Shown piece by piece: positions 7,480 to 42,531 of a DNA stretch of 64,000 bases (positions are counted from its first letter, which is position 1; each line of letters opens with the position of its first letter). The translations under genes and the position numbers were made by a program. This stretch comes from Armatimonadota bacterium (GTDB taxonomy: Bacteria; Bacillota; Desulfotomaculia; Desulfotomaculales; Nap2-2B): the NCBI GenBank assembly GCA_023511535.1, contig JAIMBK010000003.1:25471-89470 (forward strand), given 5' to 3'. Below the pieces are notes generated by a model that saw nothing but the letters and a program-made list of their open reading frames with translations, had not been told where the DNA came from and did not search any database.

Positions 7480-7654
7480 CCTTAATTAGTTGTTGTCAAT
7501 TATACCATTTCAGGAGAGAAATAACTATCCTCCGGGTTATTTATTTTGATAAATTTTTTATATTGTCCTGCTTTGTTTAAAAAATTTTCCCGGGCAGGAA
7601 GTCTGCCGCTGGTTGTTGAACTATTTAATTAAGCAAAAGAAAGGAGAAGCAACT

Positions 7655-8953
7655 GTGTATTGGGACCGTGAGAATGAAACCATGCCCCGGGAGCAGCTGC
7701 AGGCGCTCCAGCTGGAACGGCTCCGGCTGACCATCGAGCGGGTTTACCGGAACGTCCCTTTTTATCGCGAAAGATTTACCAAAGCGGGTATTAAGCCTTC
7801 TTCCGTCCGTTCTTTAGAGGACTTGCGCCGCCTGCCGTTTACCACCAAGCAGGATCTGCGGGACAACTATCCTTTCGGCCTGTTCGCCGTCTCCATGAGC
7901 GATGTGGTGCGCGTCCACGCTTCCTCGGGCACCACGGGCAAACCCACCGTGGTGGGCTACACAAAAAATGATATCAACACGTGGGCGGAGCTCGCCGCCC
8001 GGTCGCTGGCCTGCGCCGGCGGCACCAAATTTGACGTGGTGCAAAATGCCTATGGGTACGGTTTGTTTACCGGCGGGCTGGGCCTGCATTACGGCGCCGA
8101 AAGGCTGGGTGCGGCGGTGGTGCCGGTTTCCGGGGGGAACACCCGGCGCCAGCTGATGCTTATGCAGGACTTCGGTACCACCATTCTCACCTGCACACCT
8201 TCCTACGCCCTCTATCTGGCGGAGGAAGGGCAGAAAATGGGCCTGGATTTTAAAAAAATGCCTTTAAAGGCCGGGATTTTCGGGGCCGAGCCCTGGTCGG
8301 AGCGGATGCGCCGGCAGCTGGAAGAAAAACTGGATCTGGTGGCGCTGGATATTTACGGGTTGTCCGAAATTATGGGTCCGGGCGTGGCCATGGAGTGTCC
8401 GGCTAAAGAGGGCATGCACATTTTCGAGGACCACTTTATCCCGGAAATTATCGATCCCGACACGGGAGAAGTGCTTCCTGCAGGAAGCGAAGGGGAACTG
8501 GTTATTACTACCATAACGAAAGAAGCTTTTCCCCTCATCCGCTACCGTACCCGGGACATTACCCGGTTCAACCCGGAGCCTTGCCCCTGCGGCCGCACGC
8601 ACCTGCGCATCCGGCGGATTACCGGCCGCACCGACGATATGCTGATCATCCGCGGCGTAAACGTGTTTCCCTCCCAGGTGGAAAGCGTCCTGCTGGAGTC
8701 CGGCGAAACCGAACCCCACTATCTTTTGGTGGTGGACCGCAAGGGCAATTTAGATCAGCTTGAAATCTGGGTGGAGGTGGGGGAAGAACTGTTCAGCGAT
8801 AAGGTCCGCCAGCTGGAGGACCTGGAACAGCGCCTGCGGGAGCGCATCGAAAGCGTGCTGGGGATTTCCGCCCGGGTGAGGCTGGTCGAGCCCAACACCA
8901 TCCCCCGCAGCGAGGGCAAGGCCAGGCGGGTAGTGGACCGGCGGGAAATATAA
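7655..8953 (+). CDS. paaK: Phenylacetate--CoA ligase family protein (aryl-acid CoA ligase)
   Basis: N-terminus [25 protein letters not shown] motif [10 protein letters not shown]-terminal [17 protein letters not shown] 7655 follows RBS AAAGGAGAA. Confidence 0.9.
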
Positions 8954-8979: not shown

Positions 8980-9411
8980 ATGAAAATAAAGCAGATTTCG
9001 CTCTTTCTGGAAAACAAATCGGGGCGCCTGGCCAGGGTAACCCGGGTCCTGGGCGGGCACAACATCAACATCCGCGCCCTGTCCATTGCCGATACCACCG
9101 ATTTCGGCATCTTAAGGCTCATCGTCAACGAACCGGACCTGGCCTACCGGGTCTTAAAAGAAGCCGGTTTTACCGTCAGCGCCACCGAAGTCATTGCCGT
9201 GGAGGTTGCCGACGAACCCGGGGGGCTGGCCCGGGTGCTGGCCGTTTTAGAAGAGGCCGGTTTAAACATTGAGTATTTATACGCCTTCGTGCAAAAAACT
9301 CCCCGGGCGGCCCTGGTGGTGTTCCGGGTGGAGCAACTGGACGAAGCCATCGCCGCCCTGCAGGCCAAAGGCGTCCGGATCTTGAAAGAGGAAGAAGTGT
9401 ACTCTTTATAA
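8980..9411 (+). CDS. ACT domain-containing (amino-acid-binding) protein
   Basis: Two ACT-like beta-alpha-beta-beta-alpha-beta units ([15 protein letters not shown]..., [13 protein letters not shown]...). Classic partner gene downstream of paaK. Confidence 0.8.
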
Positions 9412-9418
9412 GCAGGAT

Positions 9419-11848
9419 TCAGCTTACTTCCTTGTTTTGAAAGGTTCTTTTGAATTGTTCCAGGGTCATCAGGACCGGCCGGGGTTTGCTGCCGTCAAAT
9501 TTCCCCACGATTCCCCTTTGCTCCATGATGTCCACGAGCCGGGCGGCCCTGGCGTAGCCGATGTGGAAGCGCCTTTGCAGCAGGGAGATGGAAGCGGTTC
9601 CTTTTTCAATGAAAAGCTGCACGGCCTGGGGAAGCAATTCGTCCTCTTCTTCGGCCAGGGCGGAATGGTTTTCCGGAAGCTCCATTTCCGCCACTTCCTG
9701 GTCGTAAACCGGTTTGGCCTGCTCCTTGAGAAAGGCTACCAGGGCCTCCACTTCCTTATCCGAAAGGAAGGTTCCCTGCACCCGCACCGGTTTGGGCGCT
9801 CCCACGGGGAAGAAGAGCATATCCCCCCTCCCCAGCAGCTTTTCGGCGCCGCCGATGTCCAGGATGGTGCGCGAGTCCATCTGCGAAGAAACGGCGAACG
9901 AGATCCGGGAGGGAATGTTGGCCTTGATCAAACCGGTGATGATGTCCACCGAAGGGCGCTGGGTGGCCACCACCAGGTGCAGGCCGGCGGCCCTGGCCAT
10001 TTGCGCCAGGCGGCAGATGGAATCCTCCACCTCGGCTGGCGCAACCATCATCAGGTCGGCCAGTTCGTCGATGATGATGACGATAAACGGCAGCGGACCG
10101 TCGCCGGCACCCCCGGCATGGACAACCCCGCCGCCGGCAGCCCCACCGGGGATACTCCCGGTATGCATACCCCTTTCGCCGGCGCTCCTGTTCTTGTCCC
10201 CGGCGCCCCCGCCGCCGGCCCCCGTTTCCCCGCCGGCTCCCGGCTCCCCCGCTTCATTTGCGCTTCCGGAAACGGGGCTCCTGGGCTGGCCCGCGTACAG
10301 CTGCTCATTGTACCGGGCAATGTCCTTGGCGCCGGCCGCGGCAAACAACTCGTAGCGCCGCTCCATTTCCTTGACCGCCCAGTGCAGAATGCCGGCCGCC
10401 TTTTTCGGACTGGTGACCACCGGGGTGATCAAATGCGGAATCCCGTTGTAGGTGATCAGTTCGACCATTTTGGGGTCGATTAAGATAAACTTTACTTCGT
10501 CCGGCGTGGCCTTAAACAGGATGCTGGCCACAATCGTGTTGATGCAAACGCTTTTTCCGGAGCCGGTGGCGCCGGCCACCAGCAGGTGGGGCATTTGGGC
10601 CAGGTCGGCGACGACGGGCGCGCCGGCGATATCTTTGCCCAGCGCCACGGTAAGCCGGGAAGGGGATTGCTGGAACTCCTTGCTTTCCAGCAACTCCCGC
10701 AAGTGGACGGTTGCTGTTTTCCGGTTCGGCACCTCGATGCCGATGGCGGCCCGGCCGGGGATGGGCGCCTCAATCCGGACCTGCGGGGCGGCCAGGGCCA
10801 GGGCCAGGTCGTCGGCCAGCCCGACGATGCGGCTCACCTTGACTCCCGCCGGCGGCTGGATTTCGTAGCGGGTGATGGCCGGACCAACAGTCACCTGCGT
10901 TACGCGGGCCGTTATGCCGAAGCTGGCCAGGGTTTCCTCCAGGATGCCGATCTTCTCGTTGATTTCCTTGTCGGTAACCCCGGATTCCCGGCCTTTTGCC
11001 GGGGACAGTAAAGATGCCGGCGGAAGCTGGCAGGTTTTGCCGCTGCGCACGGAAAAGGGGATTACCTTGCTCTCTTTTTTGTTTTGATCTTCCTGCTGTT
11101 TTTTGGCGGGGTGCCGCTCTCTGTCCCGGTCGGCTGCTGCTTCCGGGCGGTTGGCAATAATTACTTTTTTGCCGGCGCCTTGATCTTTTTGTTCGCCTTT
11201 GCTTTCCCCTTCCTCTTCTTTGATTTCCTCAAAAAGGAAATTAGAAATCCTGTGCACGGCCTTTCGTCCCGCCAGGGACAGGCGGGTCCCGAAGATTTGC
11301 CCCAACTGCGCCAGCGAAAGACCCGTCAAGAGGATCACCGCCACGATCAGCAGCGAGGTTAAGATAATATAGCTGCCCGCAAGGCCGAAATACTTGACCA
11401 GCAAGTAGCTGCCCAGAGCTCCCAGCAGCCCGCCGCCCTGACCCTGTTTTCCGGCGGAAAAGGTTTCGGCGAGGGGTACCCCGAGGTGCAAAAAGGTTAA
11501 AGCCACCAGCAGCAGCAGGGTAAGCCCGGTAAGCCGGGAGGTAATCTGAAGGTTCTGACGCTGCCGGATTATTTCCCAGCCAATGAAAAGAAAAAACAGG
11601 GGCAGCAGGTACCGGCCCGCCCCGGCGATACTGACGAGGCCCTGCCTGAGCAGGCTCCCGGCTGTTCCGGCGGCGGGCGTGAAAAGGCTGACCAGGCCGA
11701 GAAGCGCCAGGGTGATCGTGGCAATGCCCGCAAGCTCAAACTTCAACTCCGTGGGTGGCGGCTTGGCCACGCCGGCATTCCCCCTTTGCAAGCAGGTAAC
11801 CGCGAAGGCGCATAAAGCGCATAGAACCAAAGTTATCAAGGCTATCAA
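9419..11848 (-). CDS. ftsK: DNA translocase FtsK/SpoIIIE
   Basis: N-terminal TM segments, Walker A GATGSGKS, Walker B IIIDELADLM, C-terminal gamma wHTH (SISLLQRRFHIGYARAARLVD). Carries a Gly/Ala-rich insert (see findings). Confidence 0.9.
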   Translation of the reverse strand: MIALITLVLCALCAFAVTCLQRGNAGVAKPPPTELKFELAGIATITLALLGLVSLFTPAAGTAGSLLRQGLVSIAGAGRYLLPLFFLFIGWEIIRQRQNLQITSRLTGLTLLLLVALTFLHLGVPLAETFSAGKQGQGGGLLGALGSYLLVKYFGLAGSYIILTSLLIVAVILLTGLSLAQLGQIFGTRLSLAGRKAVHRISNFLFEEIKEEEGESKGEQKDQGAGKKVIIANRPEAAADRDRERHPAKKQQEDQNKKESKVIPFSVRSGKTCQLPPASLLSPAKGRESGVTDKEINEKIGILEETLASFGITARVTQVTVGPAITRYEIQPPAGVKVSRIVGLADDLALALAAPQVRIEAPIPGRAAIGIEVPNRKTATVHLRELLESKEFQQSPSRLTVALGKDIAGAPVVADLAQMPHLLVAGATGSGKSVCINTIVASILFKATPDEVKFILIDPKMVELITYNGIPHLITPVVTSPKKAAGILHWAVKEMERRYELFAAAGAKDIARYNEQLYAGQPRSPVSGSANEAGEPGAGGETGAGGGGAGDKNRSAGERGMHTGSIPGGAAGGGVVHAGGAGDGPLPFIVIIIDELADLMMVAPAEVEDSICRLAQMARAAGLHLVVATQRPSVDIITGLIKANIPSRISFAVSSQMDSRTILDIGGAEKLLGRGDMLFFPVGAPKPVRVQGTFLSDKEVEALVAFLKEQAKPVYDQEVAEMELPENHSALAEEEDELLPQAVQLFIEKGTASISLLQRRFHIGYARAARLVDIMEQRGIVGKFDGSKPRPVLMTLEQFKRTFQNKEVS

Positions 11849-12061
11849 CGAAAAAGCGACAAATAACCCTTTTTCTCCTCAAAGCTTACCATAAAGTGGG
11901 CGAATAGGCAAGCCGGGCCAGGGAAAAAGGCCGGGGGAAACTGACATAAAAAGGAGTGCGGTTGCGGGACCTCCCCGTGGCTCCGGAGAAGATTCCGGCG
12001 GCGATGAAACAAATAAGGATAATAGAGAAATACAGCCAGTTTTTACCTGGTAAAATTCTTG

Positions 12062-12091
12062 TTGACAAAGGTTTTTCCGTTATGGTATTAT
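12062..12091 (+). promoter_or_regulatory. Sigma-A-type promoter with extended -10
   Basis: TTGACA (12062-12067), an 18-nt spacer including TG at 12083-12084, then TATTAT (12086-12091). Confidence 0.6.
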
Positions 12092-12111
12092 TTCGCCAGT
12101 CAATTTGATAA

Positions 12112-12164
12112 CGGTTGAGTTGAGATGAGTTTGCGGTTCGTCAGCTTAGGTGAGTTGAGATGAG
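12112..12164 (+). promoter_or_regulatory. Phased (G/U)AG triplet array in the 5' leader (candidate RNA-binding-protein site)
   Basis: GAG at 12117, 12122, 12127. CAG at 12142, TAG at 12147. GAG at 12152, 12157, 12162. All are on one 5-nt register. Confidence 0.55.
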
Positions 12165-12184
12165 CGGCAGGTTTACGTGGTAAT

Positions 12185-12222
12185 AAACCGGCGTTCGTCT
12201 GCAACGCTGGTTTTTTATTTTA
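12185..12222 (+). terminator. Intrinsic terminator / attenuator upstream of dctP
   Basis: Stem CCGGCGTT (12188-12195) / AACGCTGG (12203-12210), 7-nt loop, then TTTTTTATTTT. It lies between the promoter and the dctP RBS. Confidence 0.75.
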
Positions 12223-12242
12223 ATCTTAAGGAGGTTCGACCC

Positions 12243-13337
12243 ATGCCGACCAACCCACAACCAACCGCCCGCCTGTTTCAAAGACCGGTTCTTCTCCTGC
12301 TGGCGGCCCTGCTCGGCCTCGGGCTGCTTTTCGGCGGCTGCGGCCGGCAGGAGGCCCAGCCTCCAAAAGAAGGGCAGGCCCCGCAAGAGGCCAAACCGAT
12401 CACCTTAAAATACGCCTTCTTTGCCCCCGCCAACACCTTCCCGGCCAGGCAAATGGATAAGTGGGCCGAAGAGGTGGAGAAGCGGACCAACGGCAAGGTC
12501 AAGGTGGAAAAATTCCCCGGGGGCACCCTGCTTACCGCCCAGAACATGTACGACGGCGTCTTAAAAGGAGTGGCGGACATCGGACTCTCCTGCCCCTCCT
12601 ACGAACCCGGCCGGTTCCCGCTCATCGGCGTCAGCGACCAGCCCGTGGCCTACCCCAACGCCAGGGTGGCCAGCCTGGTCCTCTACGACCTGGTCAAAGA
12701 ATTCCAGCCCCAGGAACTGGCCGACTTTAAGGTTCTCACCGTTTTTAACACCGAACCCGCGTACATCCAGTCCAAAAAGCCGGTGCAAAGATTAGAAGAC
12801 ATTACCGGCTTGCGCCTGCGCACCACCGGCACGGGGGTTCCGGTGCTCAAAGCCTTGGGCGGCACCCCGGTGGGCATGCCCCAGTCGGAAATCGCCCAGG
12901 CCCTGCAGACCGGGGTCATCGACGGGTACATCACCAGCCGGGAAGTGCTCCTCGACTTTAAGTACGCCGAAACCGTCAAATACGTCACGGACTATCCCCT
13001 GGTCACCGTCTCCTTTGCGGCGGTGATGAACAAGAACGTCTGGAACTCCCTGCCCCCGGACGTGCAAAAGGTGATCGACGACCTGGGCCGGGAAATGGCC
13101 CTCTGGACGGGGACCTACCTGGACAACCACGTCAAGGAAAGCCTGGCCTGGGCCACCAAAGAACAGGGCCTGAAAGTAATCACCTTAACCCCGGAAGAAA
13201 AGGCCCGGTGGGACGCCAAATTAAAGGGAGTCACCGACGCCTACGTTAAAGAAGTGGAAGCCAAGGGGCTCCCGGCGCAAAAGTTTCTCCAGCGGCTTAC
13301 CGAACTAAGGGATAAGTACGCTCAAGAATACAAGTAG
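12243..13337 (+). CDS. dctP: TRAP transporter substrate-binding protein (DctP family), lipoprotein
   Basis: ATG 12243 after RBS AAGGAGG. Signal peptide with lipobox LFGGC. DctP-family body. DctQ and DctM follow. Confidence 0.85.
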   Translation: MPTNPQPTARLFQRPVLLLLAALLGLGLLFGGCGRQEAQPPKEGQAPQEAKPITLKYAFFAPANTFPARQMDKWAEEVEKRTNGKVKVEKFPGGTLLTAQNMYDGVLKGVADIGLSCPSYEPGRFPLIGVSDQPVAYPNARVASLVLYDLVKEFQPQELADFKVLTVFNTEPAYIQSKKPVQRLEDITGLRLRTTGTGVPVLKALGGTPVGMPQSEIAQALQTGVIDGYITSREVLLDFKYAETVKYVTDYPLVTVSFAAVMNKNVWNSLPPDVQKVIDDLGREMALWTGTYLDNHVKESLAWATKEQGLKVITLTPEEKARWDAKLKGVTDAYVKEVEAKGLPAQKFLQRLTELRDKYAQEYK

Positions 13338-13456
13338 GTGGCCTGAAAAAAAAGTTATTACCTGCTCCAAAAAATAACTTTTTCGTCCTCTGTCGGGTCG
13401 CAAAAAACATATGGTCTGAATTCCCAATCCCTGCTTTCAAGGAGGACGTTTTTCCC

Positions 13457-13933
13457 GTGGAAAAATTCATCCACCGCTTAAACACAGGGCTGGCCTGGGT
13501 GGCTGCAGGGGCCTTGATGATCATGATGCTCCTCTCCGTGGCCAACATCATTTTGCGCCTGGCCCACCGCCCCTTAGGGGGCACCGCCGAGGCCGTCGGC
13601 TGGCTGGCGGCCGTCACCGCCGCCTTTGCCTTAGGTTACGCCCAGCTGCACCGCGGCCACGTGGCCATCGACCTGTTCGTGGCGCGCCTCCCGGCCCGCC
13701 CCCGGGCCGGCATCGCCGCCGCCGCCTCCTTTGCTGCCGCGGCCTTCTTCGCCCTGGCTGCCTGGCGGGTGGGGGTGCTGGCCCACCGCTTAGGGCAGCT
13801 GGGCAAGCTCTCCGAAACGATGCACGTGAGCTATTATCCCTTTACTTACGCCGTGGCCTTCGGCCTGGCCTGCCTTGCCCTGGTCCTTTTGGTGGATCTG
13901 CTCAAAGCGGGGAAAGGGGTCTTTGGGAAATGA
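13457..13933 (+). CDS. dctQ: TRAP transporter small permease (DctQ)
   Basis: 158-aa protein with four hydrophobic spans. Its stop overlaps the dctM start (ATGA). Confidence 0.8.
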   Translation: MEKFIHRLNTGLAWVAAGALMIMMLLSVANIILRLAHRPLGGTAEAVGWLAAVTAAFALGYAQLHRGHVAIDLFVARLPARPRAGIAAAASFAAAAFFALAAWRVGVLAHRLGQLGKLSETMHVSYYPFTYAVAFGLACLALVLLVDLLKAGKGVFGK

Positions 13934-15210
13934 GCGCCCTTCTCGGCACAGGGTTGATGGTCGTCCTCATGCTCCTGGGGATGCCCGTGGGCTTTGCCAT
14001 GCTGCTGGCCGGCTTTGTAGGGTTTTGCCTCGTAACCTCTCCGGAAGCCGCCCTGAATATGTTAAGCGGGGACATCTGGGAGCAGTTTTCCTCCTACGGC
14101 TTAAGCGTCATTCCCTTGTTTGTGCTCATGGGCAGCATCGCCTTTCACTCCGGGGTGACCGAAAGCCTTTACCGGGCGGCGTACAAGTGGGTGGGGCACT
14201 TCAAAGGCGGCCTGGCCAGCACCACCATCGTGGCCAGCATGGGCTTTGCCGCCATCTGCGGCTCCAATGCCGCCACCGCCGCCACCATGGGGACCATCGC
14301 CCTGCCGCAGATGAAAAAATACCGCTACGACCCGGCCTTGAGCGCGGCCAGCGTGGCCTGCGGCGGCACCTTGGGGGTGGTCGTTCCCCCCAGCGTGGTC
14401 CTCATCGTCATCGCCATCCAGACCGAACAGTCCATCGGCAAACTGTTTGTGGCCAACGTTATCCCCGGGATTCTTTTGGGCCTTTTGTTTTTGCTCACCA
14501 TTTCTTTTTTATGTCTGAAGAATCCCAGACTTGGCCCCGCCGGGGAAAAGGCGAGCTTTCAAGAAAGGCTGGCCGCCCTGCCCGGGGTGATCGAAACTCT
14601 GGTGTTGTTTGCCCTGGTCATCGGCGGCCTCTACCTGGGGTGGTTCACCCCCACTGAGGCCGGTGCCGCCGGTTCCTTCGGCGCCCTCGTCATTGCCCTT
14701 CTCCAGCGCCAGCTGACCTGGAAAGGGTTTGCCGGCGCCGTTCTCGAGACCATCCGCATCTCGGCCATGGTCATGGTCCTGGTGACCGGCGCCGTCATCT
14801 TCGGCCGCTTTTTAACCGTCACCAGGCTCCCCTATATTTTAACCGACTGGGCGGCGGCCCTGCCCGTTCCCCCCTTTGTGGTCCTGGGGATCATCATCGC
14901 CATCTACACCTTAGGGGGCATGTTCATGGACGCCCTGGGCTTTCTGGTGGTGACCATCCCGGTTTTTTTCCCGCTGGCCCTGGCTCTAGGCTACGACCCC
15001 TTGTGGTTTTCGGTGCTCTTGAACATCCTCACCACCATGGGGGCGGTGACCCCGCCGGTGGGAGTGTGCGCGTATATTGTGAGCGGGCTTGGTGAAAACC
15101 TGCCCCTGCAGGTGGTCTTCAAGGGTATTCTGTACTTTTTGCCCGCTTATTTTGCCGTCGTTATAATTCTGATTGCCTTTCCGCAAACGATTACCTTTTT
15201 AACCAGTTAA
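13930..15210 (+). CDS. dctM: TRAP transporter large permease (DctM)
   Basis: 426-aa polytopic protein typical of the DctM family. Confidence 0.9.
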   Translation: MSALLGTGLMVVLMLLGMPVGFAMLLAGFVGFCLVTSPEAALNMLSGDIWEQFSSYGLSVIPLFVLMGSIAFHSGVTESLYRAAYKWVGHFKGGLASTTIVASMGFAAICGSNAATAATMGTIALPQMKKYRYDPALSAASVACGGTLGVVVPPSVVLIVIAIQTEQSIGKLFVANVIPGILLGLLFLLTISFLCLKNPRLGPAGEKASFQERLAALPGVIETLVLFALVIGGLYLGWFTPTEAGAAGSFGALVIALLQRQLTWKGFAGAVLETIRISAMVMVLVTGAVIFGRFLTVTRLPYILTDWAAALPVPPFVVLGIIIAIYTLGGMFMDALGFLVVTIPVFFPLALALGYDPLWFSVLLNILTTMGAVTPPVGVCAYIVSGLGENLPLQVVFKGILYFLPAYFAVVIILIAFPQTITFLTS

Positions 15211-15241
15211 AATTAATCATATCCAGAAAAAGGTATACCCT

Positions 15242-15271
15242 TAATTCCTAATCCCAAATTCCTAATTCCTG
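15242..15271 (+). repeat. Heptamer tract (YAAYYCC)n-TG, copy H2, 5' of iorA RBS
   Basis: TAATTCC TAATCCC AAATTCC TAATTCC TG, followed by cttttaAGGAGG and ATG 15294. Confidence 0.85.
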
Positions 15272-15293
15272 CTTTTAAGGAGGCGGTAGACGC

Positions 15294-17084
15294 ATGCCCA
15301 AACATCTTCTCCTGGGCAACGAAGCCATCGCCTGGGGGCTGGTGGAGGGCGGCCTGCAGGTGGCCGCCGCCTACCCGGGCACCCCCTCTTCGGAGGTCTT
15401 CGGCACCCTGGCCCGACTGGCCCCCACCAAAGGTTTCTACGCCGAGTGGTCGGTCAACGAAAAAGTGGCTCTGGAAGTAGCCGCCGGGGCGGCCTACGCC
15501 GGGGCCCGGGCGGCGGTGAGCATGAAGCAGGTGGGCTTGAACGTGGCCGCCGATCCGTTAATGGCCCTGGCCTACATCGGCGTCAAAGGGGGCCTGGTCC
15601 TGGTGGTGGCCGACGACCCCGGTCCCCACAGTTCCCAGACCGAGCAGGACACCCGGCTCTTTGCCCGCTTCGCCGGCCTGCCTGTGTTAGATCCGGCTAC
15701 CCCGCAAGAGGCCAAAGAAATGGCCAAAGCCGCCTTTGCCCTTTCCGAGGTCCTGGGTCTCCCGGTGATCTTGCGGCCCACCACCCGAGTGGCCCACGTC
15801 GGCCAGGATGTCGGGATCGACGAAACGGTGGTCTCGCCCCCCTTCACAGGGAAATTTGCCAAAGACCCCCGCTGGGTGATCTTCCCCAGCTTAGCGGCTA
15901 AACGCCACGTCTGGCTAAACCGTCAGCAGGAAGCGGCCCAGAAGCTATTGGCCGCCACCCCCTTTAATGTTTTCCGGGAAGCAGAGAGCGAACTGGGCAT
16001 TCTTGCCTCCGGGGTCAGCGCCACCTACGCCGAAGAAGCCCTCTTTGAGTTAGGGCTAAAAGTTAACCTCTTCAAGATCGGCACTCCCTATCCCTTGCCG
16101 ATAGAACCGGTGCTCAGCTTCTTAAAGCGCTTAAAACGCCTTTTGATCCTCGAAGAGCTGGAGCCGGTGGTGGAAGACCAGGTGATCCGCCTGGCCTGGC
16201 AGCATCGCCTGCCGGTGGAGATAGCCGGCAAGCACGATCACCTGGTCCCCCGGGAAGGGGAGTTCAACGTAGACCTGGTCCGGAAAATCATCGCCTTCTT
16301 TGCCGGAGTAGCAGATCAGCTCCCTCCGGAGATGGTTCTCCCCCCTTTGCCGGCCCGCCCCCCGGTCCTCTGCGCCGGGTGCCCCCACCGGGCTTCCTTC
16401 TATGCCTTGAAAAAGGCCGCGGAAGGAACGGACGCAGTCTTCACCGGGGACATCGGCTGCTATACCCTGGGCAACGCCCCGCCGCTTTCGATGGTGGATA
16501 CCTGTCTGTGCATGGGGGCCGGGATAAACATTGCCGCGGGGCTTTTCCGGGTGGGGCCCGCCCGCAAGCAGGTGGCCTTTTTAGGGGACTCCACCTTCTT
16601 TCACGCCGGCCTGCCCGGCCTGGTCAACGCCGTCTACAACCGGGCGGCCATCACCATCGTCGTTCTGGACAACCGCACCACGGCCATGACCGGCTACCAG
16701 CCCCACCCGGGGACCGGCCGAAATGCCGCCGGCAAACCCGCCCCGGTGATTGAGATCGCCGCTTTGGCCAGGGCCTGCGGGGTGGAATTTGTCCGGGTGG
16801 TGGACCCCTACGACCTCGCCGAAGCCGTGCGGGTGGCCAGAGAAGCCCTGGCTTTCCCCGGACCCGCGGTGGTGGTCATGCGCCGGGAGTGTGTTGCCTT
16901 AGCCCAACCTAAAAAACCCTGCCGGGTGGACCGGGAAAAGTGCCTGGAGTGCAACCTCTGCATAGAAGAGCTGGGCTGCCCGGCCCTTGCCCCCGGTCCG
17001 CAAATTACCCCTGCCTGCACCGGCTGCGGCCTGTGCGCGGCTGTCTGCCCGGCCGGCGCCATCTCCGGAGGTGAGCTTTCGTGA
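15294..17084 (+). CDS. iorA: Indolepyruvate:ferredoxin oxidoreductase subunit alpha
   Basis: TPP-enzyme layout (GDIGCYTLG, GDSTFFHAG) plus two C-terminal ferredoxin-type Cys clusters (CLECNLCIEELGCP, CTGCGLCAAVCP). About 596 aa. Confidence 0.9.
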   Translation: MPKHLLLGNEAIAWGLVEGGLQVAAAYPGTPSSEVFGTLARLAPTKGFYAEWSVNEKVALEVAAGAAYAGARAAVSMKQVGLNVAADPLMALAYIGVKGGLVLVVADDPGPHSSQTEQDTRLFARFAGLPVLDPATPQEAKEMAKAAFALSEVLGLPVILRPTTRVAHVGQDVGIDETVVSPPFTGKFAKDPRWVIFPSLAAKRHVWLNRQQEAAQKLLAATPFNVFREAESELGILASGVSATYAEEALFELGLKVNLFKIGTPYPLPIEPVLSFLKRLKRLLILEELEPVVEDQVIRLAWQHRLPVEIAGKHDHLVPREGEFNVDLVRKIIAFFAGVADQLPPEMVLPPLPARPPVLCAGCPHRASFYALKKAAEGTDAVFTGDIGCYTLGNAPPLSMVDTCLCMGAGINIAAGLFRVGPARKQVAFLGDSTFFHAGLPGLVNAVYNRAAITIVVLDNRTTAMTGYQPHPGTGRNAAGKPAPVIEIAALARACGVEFVRVVDPYDLAEAVRVAREALAFPGPAVVVMRRECVALAQPKKPCRVDREKCLECNLCIEELGCPALAPGPQITPACTGCGLCAAVCPAGAISGGELS

Positions 17085-17665
17085 GCTTTGATATCGTCAT
17101 CACCGGTGTGGGCGGCCAGGGCACCGTCCTGGCCGCCCGGGTGCTGGCCGCAGCGGCCATGGCCGCCGGTCTCCCCGTGCGCACCTCGGAAATCATCGGA
17201 ATGGCCCAGCGGGAAGGGGTGGTGATGAGCCAGGTGCGCTTCGGCGACCCCCTGTGGGGCGCCTTGATCCCGGACCGAAAAGCGGATCTGCTCTTAGGCT
17301 TTGAGCCCGCCGAAGCGGTCCGCGGCCTGCCCAAGCTAAAACCCGCCGGCGTGGCGGTGGTGAATACCACCCCCGTGATCCCCGTCACCGCCGCTTTAGG
17401 GTTGTCCGCCTACGACCCGCAGGCCTGCCTGGCTTACCTGCGGGAAAAAGTGCCCCGCCTCTACCTGCTGGAGGCTTCCCGCCTGGCCGCCGAAGCGGGG
17501 CACCCCCGGGCGGTCAACTCTGTCTTGCTGGGCGCCGCCGCCGCCCTGGACCTTTTGCCCTTTAGTGCCGGCTCCCTTTTGGACTGCCTTTTGGCGGCAG
17601 TGCCGGAAAAATACCGGGAGGTCAACAGGAGGGCTTTTGAGGCGGGGAAAATGGCCGTCGGGTAA
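17081..17665 (+). CDS. iorB: Indolepyruvate:ferredoxin oxidoreductase subunit beta
   Basis: GTG overlaps the iorA stop (GTGA). N-terminus DIVITGVGGQGTVLA is typical of the gamma/IorB family. Confidence 0.85.
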   Translation: MSFDIVITGVGGQGTVLAARVLAAAAMAAGLPVRTSEIIGMAQREGVVMSQVRFGDPLWGALIPDRKADLLLGFEPAEAVRGLPKLKPAGVAVVNTTPVIPVTAALGLSAYDPQACLAYLREKVPRLYLLEASRLAAEAGHPRAVNSVLLGAAAALDLLPFSAGSLLDCLLAAVPEKYREVNRRAFEAGKMAVG

Positions 17666-17693
17666 ATGAAAACAAATACAGCAAAAGTATCTA

Positions 17694-17726
17694 CCCCAAT
17701 TCCCAATTCCTAATTCCCAATTCCTG
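17694..17726 (+). repeat. Heptamer tract (YAAYYCC)n-TG, copy H3, 5' of paaK2 RBS
   Basis: CCCCAATTCC CAATTCC TAATTCC CAATTCC TG, then tatttaAGAGGTGa and ATG 17746. Confidence 0.85.
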
Positions 17727-17745
17727 TATTTAAGAGGTGATCACC

Positions 17746-19032
17746 ATGACCTACGACGAAGTCGTCCACCTTTCCGCCGACGAAATGTACTCCATTCAGG
17801 AAAAAGGCCTCAAGTGGACGGTCCGCCACGCCTACGCGAACTGTCCCTTTTACCGCCGGAAAATGGACGAAGCGGGGGTAACCCCCGAAGACATCAAAAC
17901 CCTGGCAGACATCACCAGGCTTCCCTTTACCACCCCGGAAGACATCCGGGACAACTACCCCTTAGGGATCACGGCGGTCCCGGAAAAAGACATCGTCCGC
18001 ATCCACGCCTCTTCGGGCACTACGGGGAAAAAGAAAGTGATCCCGTATACCCGCAAGGATCTTGAAGACTGGGCGGAAATGTTCTCCCGCTGCTTTAAGC
18101 TGGCCGGCCTCACCCCCGAAGACCGCATCCAGGTGATGGTGGGCTACGGCCTCTGGACCGCCGGCGTGGGCTTTCAGGCCGGGATCGAAAAGTTCGGCGC
18201 CATGGCCGTCCCGGTGGGCCCCGGCCAGACCGACCTGCAGCTGGAGCTCATGGAAGATCTGCAGGTGACCGCCTTTTGCGCCACTTCCTCCTACGCCCTC
18301 TTTTTAGGCGAGGAAGTGGAAAGAAGGGGCTTAAAACCCCGCTTAAAGCTCAAAGCCGGGATCATCGGCTCGGAGCGCTGGAGCGACCGGATGCGCAAAA
18401 GGATCGAAGAACTCCTGGGCGTGGAAACCTTCGATATCCCCGGAATGACCGAACTCTACGGCCCCGGCACGGGCCTTGATTGCCAGGCCCACGAAGGGAT
18501 CCACTACTGGTCCGACTACTTCCTCTACGAGATCATCGACCCCCGGACCGGCCAAACCCTCCCCCCGGGGGAAACGGGGGAACTGGTGGCCACCACCTTA
18601 TGCAAAGAAGCCATGCCCATGATCCGCTACCGGACCCACGACCTCACCCGGCTCCTCCCCGGCCGGTGCTCCTGCGGGCGCTCGTTCTTCCGCACCGACC
18701 GCTTTCTGGGACGGACCGACGACATGGTGAAGGTACGGGGGGTGAATATTTTCCAGAGCCAGATCGATCATCTGTTAAATCCTTTCCGGGAACTGGGCAG
18801 CGAATACCAGTTCATTATTGACAGGGCGCCCGGGGGGAAGGACGCCGTCCTCTTACGGGTGGAATGCAGGCCGGGTTTTTCCGGCGACGGTAACGGGTTG
18901 GCGGAAACAATCAAAAAAAGGTTTTTTAACTTCGTCGGCCTCACCCCGGATGTCGAGCTGGTGCAATATGGGGGCTTGCCGCGCACGGAGCGAAAAACCA
19001 GGCGCATTTTTGATCGCCGGCTGGATTTATAA
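17746..19032 (+). CDS. paaK: Phenylacetate--CoA ligase family protein, second copy
   Basis: SSGTTGKKK AMP motif. Paralog of 7655..8953. ATG 17746 follows RBS AAGAGGTGA. Confidence 0.9.
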   Translation: MTYDEVVHLSADEMYSIQEKGLKWTVRHAYANCPFYRRKMDEAGVTPEDIKTLADITRLPFTTPEDIRDNYPLGITAVPEKDIVRIHASSGTTGKKKVIPYTRKDLEDWAEMFSRCFKLAGLTPEDRIQVMVGYGLWTAGVGFQAGIEKFGAMAVPVGPGQTDLQLELMEDLQVTAFCATSSYALFLGEEVERRGLKPRLKLKAGIIGSERWSDRMRKRIEELLGVETFDIPGMTELYGPGTGLDCQAHEGIHYWSDYFLYEIIDPRTGQTLPPGETGELVATTLCKEAMPMIRYRTHDLTRLLPGRCSCGRSFFRTDRFLGRTDDMVKVRGVNIFQSQIDHLLNPFRELGSEYQFIIDRAPGGKDAVLLRVECRPGFSGDGNGLAETIKKRFFNFVGLTPDVELVQYGGLPRTERKTRRIFDRRLDL

Positions 19033-19159: not shown

Positions 19160-19198
19160 TAAAAAAACCGGAAAAGAGATTCTTTCCGGTTATTTTTA
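19160..19198. terminator. Bidirectional intrinsic terminator
   Basis: AACCGGAAA (19166-19174) / TTTCCGGTT (19183-19191), flanked by an A-run and a T-run. Lies between convergent paaK2 and the zinc-ribbon gene. Confidence 0.75.
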
Positions 19199-19214: not shown

Positions 19215-19508
19215 CTACCGGTAGCTCATCTGGCGGTTTTGGGCCAGGCATTCCCGGCAGTAAACGGGCTTTCTCCCGGTGGGTTTGAAAGGTACCATGG
19301 TCTGGGCGCCACAATTGGAACAGAAGGCTTCGTACATCTGGCGGCTGGCCGACCCGCGCCGTTCTTCTTTGCGTCGCTGGCGGCAATCCCGGCAACGGCT
19401 GGGCTCGTTGGTCAGCCCCTTTTCCGCGTAAAAAGCCTGCTCACCGGCACTGAACACAAAATCAGCGCCGCAATCCTTGCACTTGAGCACTTTGTCTTCG
19501 TAGAACAT
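19215..19508 (-). CDS. Double zinc-ribbon protein (CxxC...CxxC x2), function unknown
   Basis: CKDCG...CRDCR and CSNCG...CRECL pairs. Strong RBS AAGGAGGAG upstream of the ATG. Confidence 0.7.
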   Translation of the reverse strand: MFYEDKVLKCKDCGADFVFSAGEQAFYAEKGLTNEPSRCRDCRQRRKEERRGSASRQMYEAFCSNCGAQTMVPFKPTGRKPVYCRECLAQNRQMSYR

Positions 19509-21224: not shown

Positions 21225-21537
21225 AACATAACGATGGTCTTCAAATCCCGTGAAGGAGGAAAGTAGGCCGGGCCCAGTTCTTCAGGGAGGAGGCGTCGGC
21301 GACTGGAAGCGCCTCTAGAACATGGCTGGTTGAAGTTCCCTCCGGAGGAGCAGGCTGAAAACCTTGAGCGGTAAAGTAGGCTGCGCCGGCTTCTTCCCCC
21401 GTTACCGGGAAGGGGGTATCGGAGTTCATTCCTGTACCTTTTTACCTGAGGGGTTTGCGCTTTTGGCGCAGGCAAGTAGGGTGGTACCGCGAAAAGATTG
21501 ATGGCTTTTCGTCCCTATGGATGAAAAGCCTTTTTTA
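21225..21537 (+). promoter_or_regulatory. T-box riboswitch 1 (complete: Stem I, Stem II, Stem III, T-box, terminator)
   Basis: Stem I base is GGAGG (21255-21259) / CCTCC (21339-21343), with AAAGTA S-turn motifs at 21260 and about 21373. Stem III is GCGCttttGGCGC. T-box core is AAGTAGGGTGGTACCGCG (21474-21491). Terminator is GGCTTTTC...GAAAAGCC plus T6 (21503-21536). Confidence 0.85.
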
Positions 21538-21730: not shown

Positions 21731-22789
21731 ATGGTTGTTGTCATGGAGCCCGGTGCATCACCGGAAACGATCGAAGTCGTCAGCGAGAGGCTGGCCGCCC
21801 AGGGTTTTCAACCGCATTTAATCCATGGCGTCAGCAGAATTGTCATCGCGGCCGTGGGGGAGCACCGCGCGGCGGATACTTCAGGCCTGGAAAACTTGCC
21901 CGGCGTGGAAAAGGTAGTCCCCATCATGAAGCCTTATAAGCTGGCCAGCAGGGAGGTCAGGGGGGAAGACAGCGTGGTGAAAGCCGGCCGGGTGGCGGTA
22001 GGCGGCGGGAGAAGCGTGGTCGTGATGGCCGGGCCGTGCGCCGTCGAAAGCCGCGAGCAGCTGTTCATGGCGGCCCGGGTGGTGAAGCGGGCCGGGGCGA
22101 CAATTTTGCGCGGCGGGGCCTTTAAACCGCGGACGTCTCCCTACAGCTTCCAGGGGTTAGCAGAAAAGGGATTACAGTTGCTGGCGGAGGCAGCCGCCTG
22201 GGCGGGTCTGGCCACGGTGAGCGAAGTAATTGACCAGGAAAGCCTGGACATGGCCAAAGATTACGTGGATATTCTGCAGATTGGGGCGCGCAACATGCAG
22301 AATTTCCGCCTTTTGCGGGCGGCCGGCCGCTCCGGCAAGCCCGTTCTGTTGAAGCGCGGCCTCTCGGCGACCATCGAGGAATGGCTCATGGCGGCGGAAT
22401 ATATCATGTCGGAAGGCAACGAGCAAGTTATCCTGTGCGAACGGGGCATCCGCACCTTTGAGCGCCTGACGCGTAATACCCTGGACTTGAGCGCCGTTTC
22501 TCTGGTGAAAATCTTAAGCCACCTGCCCGTGGTGGTCGATCCCAGCCATGCCACCGGAGACCGGCGCCTGATCGGCCCGATGTCCAAAGCAGCACTGGCG
22601 GCCGGGGCGGACGGCCTGCTCATCGAGGTGCACCCCGATCCTGCTCAGGCGCTGTGCGACGGCCAGCAGTCCCTTAACCCGGAACAATTTACCGCGCTGA
22701 TGCAGGACTTACAGGCAATAACGCTGGTTACCGGGCGAAAATTGGGCAGCCTTCCGGAGGCGGGCAAAGGAATAAAAGCTGCCGGCTAG
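21731..22789 (+). CDS. aroF: 3-deoxy-7-phosphoheptulonate (DAHP) synthase, class I-beta with N-terminal ferredoxin-like regulatory domain
   Basis: N-terminal roughly 70-aa regulatory domain (VVVMEPGAS...), then KDO8P/DAHPS-type barrel (AGPCAVES, GAFKPRTSPYSFQG, DPSH). Confidence 0.9.
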   Translation: MVVVMEPGASPETIEVVSERLAAQGFQPHLIHGVSRIVIAAVGEHRAADTSGLENLPGVEKVVPIMKPYKLASREVRGEDSVVKAGRVAVGGGRSVVVMAGPCAVESREQLFMAARVVKRAGATILRGGAFKPRTSPYSFQGLAEKGLQLLAEAAAWAGLATVSEVIDQESLDMAKDYVDILQIGARNMQNFRLLRAAGRSGKPVLLKRGLSATIEEWLMAAEYIMSEGNEQVILCERGIRTFERLTRNTLDLSAVSLVKILSHLPVVVDPSHATGDRRLIGPMSKAALAAGADGLLIEVHPDPAQALCDGQQSLNPEQFTALMQDLQAITLVTGRKLGSLPEAGKGIKAAG

Positions 22790-22969: not shown

Positions 22970-23848
22970 ATGACTAAAAAAATCGGTTATTTAGGACCGC
23001 CGGGAACTTTTTCGGAAATGGCCGCCAGGCTTTACCTAAATAGCGTGGATAAGGGTGAATTAATTCCCTTTCCTTCTCTGACGGATATTTTTATGGCCGT
23101 AGAAAAAGGAGGACTGACCGAAGGAATTTTGCCCCTGGAAAATTCTACCGAGGGATCGGTAAACCAGACGCTGGATTTACTGGCCCACCGCTTTGGGCAG
23201 ACGAAAATCAAGAACGAAATAATCTTGTCCGTGAACCACCATTTGCTGGCGCGGACGGGTGTTCCTTTCCATAAAGTGGTGCGGGTGGTCTCGCACCCCC
23301 AGGCGCTGGCGCAGTGCCGCTCCTTTCTGGAAAACTCCCTGCCGGGGGTGGAGGTACAGGAGGCTGCCAGCACTGCTGAAGCCGCTGCGCTCGTCGCCGC
23401 CATGCCGGCGCCCTGGGCGGCCATCGGAACCGCGCAGGTTGCCCGGTCTTGCGGCCTGGTGATTTTAGCGGAAAAGATCAACGATTGCTCCGCCAACGCC
23501 ACCCGTTTCATCGTGGTTGCCCGGGAGGACGCTCCCCAGGGGCCGGGGTGCAAGACTTCCATCATCTTTTCCGTGGAGGACCGGCCGGGGGCGCTGTGCG
23601 ACGTTCTTCTCGAATTTGCGGAAAGGAAAATCAACCTTACCCGGATTGAATCCCGCCCCACCCGGAACAGGCTGGGGGAATACCTGTTCTTTGTTGACTT
23701 CCAGGGGCATCGCCTGGACCAGGTCGTGCAGCAGGCCCTGGCGGCGGTTTCCCGGCGCGCGGTCAGCATGCGCGTGCTGGGCTCGTATCCGGCGGTTTCC
23801 GGAGAAGAACCGGAGGCCGGGCAGAAAAAATACCGGCGGGCCGGTTAA
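22970..23848 (+). CDS. pheA: Prephenate dehydratase (PDT + ACT domains)
   Basis: GYLGPPGTFSE N-terminus and TRIESRPTR ACT-domain motif. Confidence 0.9.
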   Translation: MTKKIGYLGPPGTFSEMAARLYLNSVDKGELIPFPSLTDIFMAVEKGGLTEGILPLENSTEGSVNQTLDLLAHRFGQTKIKNEIILSVNHHLLARTGVPFHKVVRVVSHPQALAQCRSFLENSLPGVEVQEAASTAEAAALVAAMPAPWAAIGTAQVARSCGLVILAEKINDCSANATRFIVVAREDAPQGPGCKTSIIFSVEDRPGALCDVLLEFAERKINLTRIESRPTRNRLGEYLFFVDFQGHRLDQVVQQALAAVSRRAVSMRVLGSYPAVSGEEPEAGQKKYRRAG

Positions 23849-24063: not shown

Positions 24064-25737
24064 CTACTCCGGCGCTTTCATTACCGCCCCCGTGCTGGCG
24101 GAAGTGACCAGGGCCGCGTAGCGGGCCAGGTAGCTTTTGCCGGTGACTTTCGGGGGCGGGGGCTGCCAGGCGCTGCGCCGGGCGGCCAGCTCTTCTTCGG
24201 AAAGCTTTACGTTCAGCTGGCGCCGGGGAATGTCGATTTCAATCAGGTCGCCTTCTTGCACCAGGGCCAGCGGCCCGCCTTCGGATGCTTCCGGGGAAAT
24301 GTGCCCGATGGAAGCCCCGCGGGTGCCGCCGGAGAAACGCCCGTCGGTGATCAGGGCGACTTTGCTGCCCAGGCCCATTCCCGTGATGGCCGAAGTGGGG
24401 CTGAGCATCTCCCGCATGCCGGGACCACCCCTGGGACCTTCATAACGGATGACCACTACGTCTTTTTCCCGGATTTTTCCGTCCATAATGGCGTTAAAAG
24501 CTTCTTCCTCGCTTTCGAACACCCGGGCCGGGCCGGTGTGCACGAGCATTTCCGGGACCACCGCCGACTGCTTGACCACCGCGCCGTCCGGCGCCAGGTT
24601 ACCCCTTAAGACGGCGATCCCTCCCTCGGGCGCGTACGGGTCGGTTAAGGGGCGAATGACCCGGGAATCACGCACGGCGGCCCGGCTGATGTTTTCGCCC
24701 AGCGTTTTGCCGGTGGCGGTCGGCGCGTCCAGCGCCAGCAGTCCCGCTTTGCCCAGTTGCTTGAGCACGGCGGAAATGCCGCCCGCCTGGTAGAGGTCAA
24801 ACAGCCGGTCTTCACCGGCGGGGCTCAGCTTGCAGATGTTCGGCACCCGGGCGCTGATTTCGTCAAAGGTTTCCAGCGCCAGGGGAACTTCCGCCTCGTA
24901 AGCGATGGCCAGCAGGTGGAGCACCGTGTTGGTGGAGCCGCCGATGGCCATATCCAGTGCGATGGCGTTGCGAAAAGCCGCCGGGGTAAGGATATCCCGG
25001 GGGCGCACGTTTCGCCGGACCATTTCCATGAGGCGCTCCCCGGCCAGCTTGGCCAGGGCTTTGCGCTGCCCGTAGGGGGCGGGAATGGTGCCGTTGCCGG
25101 GCAGGCCGATCCCCAAAGCCTCCGCCAGGCAGTTCATGGTGTTGGCCGTGAAAAGCCCGGCGCAGCTCCCGCAGCTGGGGCAGGCGCTCAGTTCCATTTC
25201 GGTCAGTTCTTCTTCGCTTATTGTTCCCTGGGCGAAAGTGCCCACCGCTTCAAAGACCCCCCGCACCAGGTCGACCTTCCTTTCCCGGTGCGTGCCCGTC
25301 AGCATGGGTCCGCCGCCCACGTACACGCTCGGAATGTTCAGGCGGGCGGCGGCCATCAACATACCGGGGACAATTTTATCACAGTTGCCGATCAGCACCA
25401 GCCCGTCCAGCTTGTGGGCGACCACCATGGTTTCGATGGAATCGGCAATCAGCTCCCGGCTGGCCAGGGGGTACTTCATGCCGTCGTGGTTCATGGCGAT
25501 CCCGTCGCAAATGCCGATAACCGGAAATTCCACCGGCGTACCGCCGCCGGCCGCCACGCCCAGCTTGGCCGCCTGGGCAAGCTCCCTTAAATGGATGTGC
25601 CCGGGAATGATTTCGTTGAAGGCGTTGACAATCCCGATCAGCGGTTTTTGCAGGTCTTCCGGCGTATAGCCCATGGCGTAAAAGAGCGACCGGTGCGGCG
25701 CCCTGGTGACGCCTCTGGTTACCTGTTCGCTAGCCAA
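24064..25737 (-). CDS. ilvD: Dihydroxy-acid dehydratase
   Basis: 557 aa with canonical IlvD motifs (CDGIAMNH..., SDGRFSGGT-like [11 protein letters not shown]). TTG start after GGGTGAG. Confidence 0.95.
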
Positions 25738-25895
25738 CCAAATCTCACCCTTTCTAGTGTTTTACCGGTTGCCGGGATAATCTTTCCTCATTATCGCTCA
25801 ACAAAAGATTTCAATAAAAAAATAGAAAACCCTTTTTGGAAAATACATCTTGCTAAATTCCTACACGAAAGGTATAGAAAGAGGGCTGAAGTCAG

Positions 25896-25915
25896 CCCCT
25901 AACCCCTAACCCCTG
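25896..25915 (+). repeat. Heptamer tract copy H5 (G-rich on the mRNA strand, directly after the mutase small-subunit stop)
   Basis: CCCCTAACCCC TAACCCC TG on the + strand, 5 nt from the stop codon of the minus-strand gene 25920..26318. Confidence 0.8.
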
Positions 25916-25919
25916 TCTT

Positions 25920-26318
25920 CTATACTCGCACATTTTCCCTGATCCACTGCACAATCGTCTCGATCGGCGTGCCGGGGGTAAACAGCTCCTTTGCCCAGCC
26001 GCCCTCTTTTAAGGCTTTGATGTCGTCCGTCGGGATGGTGCCGCCGCCGATGACGATGATGTCTTCCGCTCCGCGCTCTTTCAGCAGTTCGCTCACCCGG
26101 GGGAAGAGGGTCAGGTGGGCGCCGGACAAAATGCTCAACCCGATGACGTCCACATCTTCCTGGATGGCGGCTTCGACAATCTGCTCGGGGGTTTGGTGCA
26201 GACCGGTATAGACTACTTCCATCCCCGCGTCGCGCAGACCCCGGGCGATTACCCGGGCGCCCCGGTCGTGACCGTCTAAGCCCGGTTTGGCGACTAAAAC
26301 GCGAATTCTTCTGCTCAT
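25920..26318 (-). CDS. icmB: B12-binding small subunit of acyl-CoA mutase
   Basis: DxHxxG motif ([10 protein letters not shown]), SxL...GG cobalamin-binding fold, 132 aa. Symbol is tentative and follows from the large-subunit signature. Confidence 0.85.
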
Positions 26319-26363
26319 GGTTTCTCCTTCCTTTCTTTTGGAAAACCTTCCAAAATCAAATCC

Positions 26364-28025: not shown

Positions 28026-28082
28026 AAAATTACCACCTCATTTCCTAAAAATTATATAAATTTAATCCTTTTATGAAGTTTT

Positions 28083-28155
28083 CCAGGCACAAAGGCACAA
28101 AGTAAAATATTCCCTGGTTGCACCTGTTTCTTCGTGCCTTCGTGCCCCCTGTGCC
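28083..28155. repeat. GGCACAAAG / CTTYGTGCC inverted-repeat element (copy K2)
   Basis: ccaGGCACAAAGGCACAAAG, a 29-nt spacer, then CTTCGTGCCTTCGTGCC, ccCTGTGCC. Confidence 0.8.
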
Positions 28156-28247
28156 TCCCCTATAAAAATAGCTTTCGCACATTTTCATCTTCTGTTGATG
28201 TCGCCGAAAAAGCAGCATGGAGGTTTAATCCCCGATCTTTTCTCTAT

Positions 28248-28274
28248 CCCCTAATTCCCAATCCCCAATTCCTG
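28248..28274 (+). repeat. Heptamer tract copy H6 (G-rich on the mRNA strand, directly after the activase stop)
   Basis: CCCCTAATTCC CAATCCC CAATTCC TG on the + strand, 4 nt from the stop of minus-strand gene 28278..29228. Confidence 0.8.
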
Positions 28275-28277
28275 TCT

Positions 28278-29228: not shown

Positions 29229-29241
29229 TCCGTTCCCTTCT

Positions 29242-39891: not shown

Positions 39892-39907
39892 AAAGGAGGA
39901 AGGGCAA

Positions 39908-40894: not shown

Positions 40895-40900
40895 AAAGAG

Positions 40901-41140: not shown

Positions 41141-41219
41141 TTTCCCAAGACGTAGACCAGATGAGCAAAGCGGCCATTTCAGAGGTTTATTTCTAATGGA
41201 AGGGGGAAAACTTTTCCCG

Positions 41220-42515: not shown

Positions 42516-42531
42516 AAAGGAGGCGGGTAAA

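Follow-up and report, generated by a model that had tools for sequence, protein, structure and literature searches.

In the 64,000-nt stretch of contig JAIMBK010000003.1 that was analysed here (the window), the leader upstream of dctP precedes an operon for a DctPQM transporter, an indolepyruvate oxidoreductase (IorAB) and a PaaK-like aryl-CoA ligase. With moderate confidence, this leader is interpreted as a protein-dependent transcription attenuator of the type known for TRAP (trp RNA-binding attenuation protein, encoded by mtrB) of Bacillus. Its cis-anatomy, and the conservation of that anatomy in related leaders, are established here. The new aspects are the target operon and the taxon; the type of mechanism is itself already known.

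The leader contains an array of trinucleotides in 11 slots with a 5-nt period, the last step being 6 nt (12117-12170, + strand), which reads GAG GAG GAG ugc uuc CAG UAG GAG GAG GAG CAG and is proposed, on its sequence, to be bound by a ring-shaped protein of the TRAP type. A previous sequence-only reading of this DNA had reported seven (G/U)AG and one CAG in ten consecutive slots, and all of its coordinates were correct: GAG at 12117, 12122, 12127, 12152, 12157 and 12162, TGC at 12132, TTC at 12137, CAG at 12142 and TAG at 12147. A further CAG at 12168, new relative to that reading, follows a 3-nt spacer and brings the array to nine NAG triplets in 11 slots (six GAG, one UAG and two CAG; seven of the nine are (G/U)AG). 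The exact repeat that had been described was also present, as the 13-mer GAGTTGAGATGAG was identical at 12117-12129 (cluster 1, GAGUUGAGAUGAG) and 12152-12164 (cluster 2, GAGUUGAGAUGAG, both on the + strand). Seven (G/T)AG in ten strict 5-nt slots occurred only once in the window. Outside the leader, no position with at least six of ten slots was seen on the + strand, and the maximum on the - strand was three. When the leader was shuffled 5000 times with its dinucleotides preserved, seven or more matches never arose, and no arrays of at least six were present in approximately 218 kb of related loci, except in the homologous leaders. These homologous leaders define three lineages: lineage A (the window, L052 and L077), lineage B (L133, L136 and L137) and lineage C (L001 and L002).

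The array is preceded by a sigma-A type promoter (12062-12091, + strand), with a -35 element TTGACA at 12062-12067, an 18-nt spacer and an extended -10 element TGgTATTAT at 12083-12091, and is followed by an intrinsic terminator (12185-12222, + strand). Both had been recognised in the sequence-only reading, and both held when the sequence was read and scanned. The promoter scored 11/12 with the TG in a consensus scan, was the sole promoter-like site in 11500-12600 (shuffles, mean 0.2) and was kept in L052, L077, L133 and L002; transcription would start near A12098. The terminator stem at 12185-12213 (AAACCGGCGUU/AACGCUGGUUU) has 11 pairs and a 7-nt loop, with a predicted stability of -14.2 kcal/mol, and is followed by UUUUUUAUUUU, that is, by TTTTTTATTTT with a run of 6 U.

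Folding of the leader minus the terminator 3' arm revealed a predicted antiterminator, which had been overlooked when a check for mutually exclusive structures was suggested from the sequence. In this hairpin (12158-12200, + strand, -20.0 kcal/mol), 12158-12175 (AGAUGAGCGGCAGGUUUA) pairs with 12184-12200 (UAAACCGGCGUUCGUCU), and its 5' strand is made of the last two GAG triplets of cluster 2, which form the top of that strand, and the final CAG, so that the array overlaps the antiterminator. The antiterminator and the terminator are mutually exclusive, because 16 nt (12185-12200) are common to both. The antiterminator was predicted to be more stable than the terminator taken alone, both in the window (-20.0 versus -14.2 kcal/mol) and in L002 (-20.8 versus -17.5 kcal/mol). 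It was also predicted in L133, and in lineages B and C it was still part of the lowest-energy fold of the full-length leader. With transcripts of increasing length, the antiterminator was the lowest-energy fold at 12200-12210, and the terminator won only when its 3' arm was complete. When the array was constrained to be single-stranded, the terminator was the predicted fold that remained, with the same outcome in L002. The conservation of the terminator loop is explained by this arrangement, since the loop pairs with GAGAUGAG.

From this anatomy we infer the protein, its ligand and the physiological meaning of the leader, as follows. Transcription would begin near 12098 and, as long as the protein is not bound, the emerging RNA would fold 12158-12175 with 12184-12200 into the antiterminator, sequestering the terminator 5' arm and loop, so that RNA polymerase would read on into dctPQM-iorAB-paaK. 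When the effector is plentiful, a ring-shaped RNA-binding protein would wrap the nine NAG triplets of the array. The bound protein would keep the antiterminator 5' strand unpaired, the terminator at 12185-12213 would form, and transcription would stop in the U-run at 12211-12222. L-tryptophan is the most likely effector and an MtrB homologue the most likely protein, and tryptophan probably turns the operon off. Tryptophan is proposed rather than established as the signal, because the trans-acting half of the system rests on related clostridial lineages.

The sequence-only reading had suggested that the triplet register be looked for in orthologous leaders, and in two further lineages the phase was kept and the spacers were not. 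DctP was 81% identical to that of the window in lineage B and 77% identical in lineage C. The leader travels with the same gene set, as in lineage B it precedes DctPQM-PaaK-IorAB (L136 and L137) and in lineage C DctPQM and then PaaK. With the slots anchored at the 3' end on GAGcgg-CAG, the lineage B array reads UAG GAG GAG GAG agg agc GAG GAG GAG GAG CAG (seven GAG, one UAG, one CAG), and the lineage C array reads GAG GAG CAG GAG, a 5-nt spacer, and then AAG GAG GAG GAG CAG (six GAG, two CAG, one AAG). Each lineage therefore has exactly nine NAG triplets, with 2-nt spacers and one of 3 nt. The 5' triplet runs, GAGuuGAGauGAG in lineage A, UAGauGAGcgGAGccGAG in lineage B and GAGcgGAGuuCAGcuGAG in lineage C, could not be aligned as sequence; only the AG and the 5-nt phase were kept, with the spacers uu and au in A, au, cg, cc and aa in B, and cg, uu, cu and ga in C. 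Single 5' runs were reached by 128 (A), 9 (B) and 19 (C) of 20000 dinucleotide shuffles. Slot 7 is UAG in lineage A, GAG in B and AAG in C. Across all five leaders a 25-nt block, G(U/C)GAGUUGAGAUGAGCGGCAGGUU, was invariant, and the promoter, this block and the terminator with its loop were invariant across the lineages, save for one terminator pair that changes from G-U to G-C. The 3' GAG triplets prove little alone, because the antiterminator pairing also constrains them. As read from the sequences, the evidence for constraint on the triplets themselves is confined to the 5' triplets and slot 7.

Lineage A has additional elements. The exact duplicate of the cluster is confined to this lineage, and lineages B and C carry UAGauGAGcgGAGccGAG and GAGcgGAGuuCAGcuGAG in its place. 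The segment between the two clusters, which had been noted to resemble the terminator arm and loop and to hint at alternative pairings, was found to be a decoy of the antiterminator 3' strand, present in lineage A only (GCGGUUCGUCAGC, 12134-12146, + strand): GCGGTTCGTCAGC at 12134-12146 matches GGCGTTCGTCTGC at 12190-12202 in 10 of 13 positions. The decoy and cluster 2 were predicted to form an anti-antiterminator hairpin (1:2, 12126-12177, -18.4 kcal/mol), and cluster 1 was predicted to pair with 12140-12152 in a further hairpin (0:1, -11.0 kcal/mol). By pairing with cluster 2, the decoy would give an extra push to termination. In these predicted folds, a protein on the GAG clusters would shift every extra lineage A pairing toward termination. 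If the attenuator works as proposed, the duplicated cluster and the decoy illustrate how a protein-dependent attenuator may gain added layers of RNA switching.

The leader was also looked for more widely. A scan of a genome collection with GAGNNGAGNNGAGCGGCAGGT gave 102 matches, of which only L052 and L077 were true homologues, and the window's own genome was not among the matches. A metagenome scan with DctP gave 22 loci, none of which had the array. DctP orthologues that are not preceded by the leader had different upstream regions, both at 85-91% identity (L003, L025/L026 and L135) and at 73-75% identity (L004, L027 and L134). In two of these loci (L025/L026, 469-2775; L135, 1-1430), a 768-residue PucR-like regulator (GAF-GGDEF_2-HTH_30) lies directly before a DctP that is 86-91% identical to that of the window; judging by these gene orders, one of the two types of regulator, RNA leader or transcription factor, appears to have replaced the other at the same transporter. 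Another upstream element was seen in L003 (approximately 2250-2380), L005 (approximately 2220-2400) and L006 (approximately 280-470), with a start of the form ...GAGCTG(c/g)at... and an end consisting of a terminator-like hairpin and a T-run. This shared element may be a separate, unrelated leader.

These results are largely concordant with the literature on TRAP. Natural TRAP targets have 9-11 NAG repeats, with N in the order G ~ U > A > C, and short spacers (PMC1474065), and the nine triplets of each lineage fall within this range. The triplets are conserved and the spacers are not, as judged from the 5' runs and slot 7. The optimised repeat units for TRAP are GAGUU and GAGAU, and in the trp leader of B. 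subtilis the TRAP site overlaps an antiterminator whose block lets the attenuator form (PMC3064811). A site overlapping an antiterminator that excludes a terminator was likewise predicted in the window, L002 and L133.

Several observations weigh against this interpretation. TRAP-regulated trp operons have weak attenuators, with an overlap of 0-5 nt between antiterminator and terminator (PMC3064811); this trait, typical but not strictly defining, is absent here, as the terminator is strong (11 pairs and 6 U) and the overlap is 16 nt. Two central slots of the window array have no NAG, lineage C departs from strict phase by one 5-nt spacer, and the array is partly base-paired in the predicted folds. 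The antiterminator pairing is sufficient to explain why the 3' cluster, spacers included, does not vary, and covariation support is impossible because the stems of the antiterminator and terminator never vary. Cluster 1 of lineage A could be a structural decoy, engaged in the 0:1 and 1:2 pairings, instead of a protein site. The length series for lineage A placed the anti-antiterminator hairpin 1:2 earlier than the antiterminator, and basal read-through may therefore be lower in this lineage than in lineages B and C. Finally, no mtrB was found within the window or within any of the fetched leader-bearing loci, and no MtrB was linked by organism name or accession number to the metagenome-assembled genomes (MAGs) that bear the leader. 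The original proposal of an MtrB-type tryptophan attenuator is thus partly supported, having come through every cis-level test that was run.

The MtrB family (PF02081) is large and is not restricted to Bacillaceae, being present in Carboxydothermus, Thermosyntropha, Syntrophomonadaceae and several MAGs of Clostridia and Bacillota. When nine MtrB sequences were aligned, no variation was seen in the Glu-Lys pair that binds RNA or in the SAIK-motif Lys, and the Arg was present in eight of the nine. The GLTRG and QFT motifs, which we take to line the tryptophan pocket in TRAP structures, were kept. In Carboxydothermus hydrogenoformans (L130, 5927-15024) and in a Bacillota MAG (L131/L132, 6512-13469), mtrB lies in a conserved neighbourhood with the order dnaE - mtrB - an open reading frame (ORF) of 61-66 residues (MWTVVYIAPN...) - (accD accA) - pfkA - pyk. 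Nothing was found in the literature on TRAP or mtrB in Pelotomaculum or Desulfotomaculum, or on TRAP with indolepyruvate oxidoreductase.

The alternative closest to the TRAP-type attenuator keeps the same architecture and changes the binder. The array would then be read by a ring-shaped triplet-binding protein other than tryptophan-sensing TRAP, either an MtrB paralogue or an unrelated protein, with indoleacetate, phenylacetate, another aryl acid or another aromatic amino acid as its ligand. This is possible, if doubtful. The cis-evidence points to a reader of phased triplets rather than to one particular binder, and look-ups by window, locus and accession tied no mtrB to these genomes. A different ligand would suit an operon that handles aryl acids and arylpyruvates generally, beyond indole compounds, and a Phe T-box serves the aromatic biosynthesis genes nearby. 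However, no described family but TRAP reads NAG triplets at a spacing of 2-3 nt, the preference for N observed here (G, then U, A and C) and the nine repeats in 11 slots suit an 11-mer TRAP (PMC1474065), and the GLTRG and QFT motifs retained by clostridial MtrB homologues argue for tryptophan. Among the other known RNA-binding proteins, a HutP-type site was rejected because of the 5-nt period, the single UAG and the location of the triplets on the antiterminator strand. HutP, CsrA, Hfq, PyrR and ANTAR were rejected on motif geometry, with the wrong spacing or no GGA/hairpin motifs.

Explanations that dispense with a triplet-binding protein are less probable. A metabolite riboswitch or an RNA-intrinsic switch, with the antiterminator and terminator as expression platform and the GAG periodicity arising from internal duplication, is unlikely. 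The whole leader was more stable than its shuffles (z = -3.6), and lineage A offers the alternative pairings 0:1, 1:2, 2:3 and 3:4, but an Rfam scan of 11700-12500 with a threshold as lenient as E <= 10 gave noise only, with no cis-regulatory family, including the Trp leader. Moreover, upstream of the expression platform the lineages share only phased NAG triplets, which is the opposite of a conserved aptamer. It is unlikely too that a ribosome senses charged tRNA-Trp or tRNA-Phe in this leader. A mini-ORF, AUG AGC GGC AGG UUU ACG UGG UAA (12161-12184, + strand, MSGRFTW-stop), lies inside the antiterminator, overlaps its loop and ends in Phe-Thr-Trp, with a Shine-Dalgarno-like AGGUGA (12149-12154) 6 nt before it, and stalling at UGG would place the ribosome over the terminator 5' arm and cause read-through. 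The mini-ORF is kept in L052 and L077, where the sole change is synonymous (ACG to ACC). It contains one Trp codon only, however, and leaves the phased 5' triplets unexplained; in lineages B and C, the frame that starts at this AUG meets no early stop and continues for more than 40 codons, and it is the triplet array that is conserved instead. A leader peptide was rejected as the shared mechanism, as the ORF is confined to lineage A and the Rfam Trp leader model gave no match. That the repeats act in the DNA, as half-sites of an operator for an elongation-blocking transcription factor, or that they reflect a neutral duplication, is very unlikely. Just past the promoter, a 13-bp sequence recurs unchanged as a direct repeat at a distance of 35 bp, and close relatives of this DctP are under a PucR-like transcription factor, but lineages B and C kept the phased triplets without a second identical copy, and the array is strand-specific, on the antiterminator strand. 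Neutral duplication was ruled out because the block is invariant while DctP has diverged to 77-81% identity.

In physiological terms, the operon may import aryl acids, activate them to CoA esters by the PaaK-like ligase and carboxylate them reductively by IorAB to arylpyruvates, and hence supply aromatic amino acids. DctPQM, IorAB and an aryl-CoA ligase suit such anabolic salvage; the role of the operon could equally be catabolic. Under the proposed mechanism, binding causes termination and the operon is therefore off when the ligand is abundant, which fits an anabolic role. This would favour an anabolic direction over amino-acid fermentation, because a catabolic operon is expected to be induced, and not repressed, by tryptophan. 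If tryptophan represses, the operon would be under end-product control, salvaging aryl acids into aromatic amino acids. To our knowledge, TRAP control has been studied almost exclusively in Bacillaceae, and only on genes for tryptophan biosynthesis, transport and efflux. If the TRAP-type attenuator is correct, the TRAP regulon would reach a new pathway and the strictly anaerobic Desulfotomaculales, and if the ligand is another compound, phased-triplet attenuation would gain a second class of ligand. Whichever protein binds, the logic of repression would point to anabolic conversion of aryl acids to amino acids via indolepyruvate oxidoreductase in syntrophic Desulfotomaculales. A route of this kind, by indolepyruvate oxidoreductase, is documented in Methanococcus maripaludis, as cited in PMC4162585. 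The termination-on-binding design makes a directly testable prediction about the physiology of an uncultured syntroph.

The genes of the operon (12243-19032, + strand) had been named in the sequence-only reading, and Pfam assigned all of them in agreement with it: dctP (12243-13337), dctQ (13457-13933), dctM (13930-15210), iorA (15294-17084), iorB (17081-17665) and the gene for the PaaK-like aryl-CoA ligase (17737-19032). A Shine-Dalgarno sequence, AAGGAGG (12228-12234), precedes the dctP ATG at 12243 (12228-12245, + strand); these were read from the sequence, and the frame is backed by the Pfam DctP match. An operon terminator was read near 19168-19198, and just past it, on the opposite strand (19215-19508, -), lies an ORF for a 97-residue Cys-rich protein with CxxC pairs, probably a zinc ribbon. 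Upstream of the operon, beyond ftsK, a second PaaK-like aryl-CoA ligase is encoded (7613-8953, +), with a gene for a small protein of paired ACT domains directly 3' of it (8980-9411, +). No triplet array was present in the region upstream of this second ligase (7480-7612). A T-box leader was detected at 21241-21519 (+), with 96.7 bits, where the gathering score is 93, and UUC (Phe) at the specifier position in the model alignment. It precedes genes for DAHP synthase and an ACT-domain prephenate dehydratase (21731-22789 and 22970-23848, +), and the aromatic biosynthesis genes in the window thus rely on tRNA sensing. Further downstream, 24064-31349 (-) encodes a dihydroxy-acid dehydratase, a B12-binding subunit and methylmalonyl-CoA mutase, a BcrAD/BadFG-type activase and two 2-hydroxyacyl-CoA dehydratase-like proteins, and 38986-43314 holds an ETF, thiolase and enoyl-CoA hydratase cluster. 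Both clusters are compatible with a syntrophic, acid-degrading lifestyle. MCL6446769.1, a DctP deposited under the name Armatimonadetes bacterium, shows 100% identity to the DctP of the window, and near-identical DctP copies or contigs carry the labels Bacillota, Desulfotomaculales or Pelotomaculum sp. The DNA comes from an uncultured organism of the Bacillota, a Pelotomaculum-like anaerobe of the Desulfotomaculales, and the Armatimonadetes label is probably an error of binning or naming.

The leader can be compared with four groups of known systems. The lineage A pairings of decoy with cluster 2, of cluster 2 with the terminator 5' arm, and of the terminator itself resemble the 1:2, 2:3 and 3:4 pairings of the E. 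coli trp leader, unlike which there is no conserved leader peptide here and lineages B and C lack the additional segments. HutP, which controls hut in B. subtilis, is likewise an oligomeric, amino-acid-activated protein; it recognises UAG triplets with 4-nt spacers in two sets of three, and its binding prevents termination. Repeated NAG triplets in a terminator-bearing leader are common to both, whereas the leader described here has a 5-nt period, a dominance of GAG and a geometry which predicts that binding leads to termination. The TRAP sites of trpG/pabA, trpP/yhaG and ycbK in B. subtilis have about nine triplets and bring a transporter and an efflux gene into the regulon. They control translation initiation through overlap with the Shine-Dalgarno sequence or start codon, in contrast to the present leader, whose terminator comes before the Shine-Dalgarno sequence (12228-12234) and whose control is predicted to be transcriptional. 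Compared with the TRAP attenuator of B. subtilis trpEDCFBA, the target is an operon for a TRAP-transporter, IorAB and an aryl-CoA ligase in an uncultured member of the Desulfotomaculales, two central slots are empty, and lineage A adds the duplicated cluster and the decoy. The strong terminator and the 16-nt overlap also differ from the weak attenuator and the 0-5 nt in Bacillus (PMC3064811). In its general design, however, the leader is closest to this system: it is promoter-proximal, its NAG triplets with short, unconserved spacers include GAGUU and GAGAU units, and an antiterminator and a downstream terminator exclude each other, with the triplets overlapping the 5' strand of the former, so that binding, here by prediction, leads to termination.

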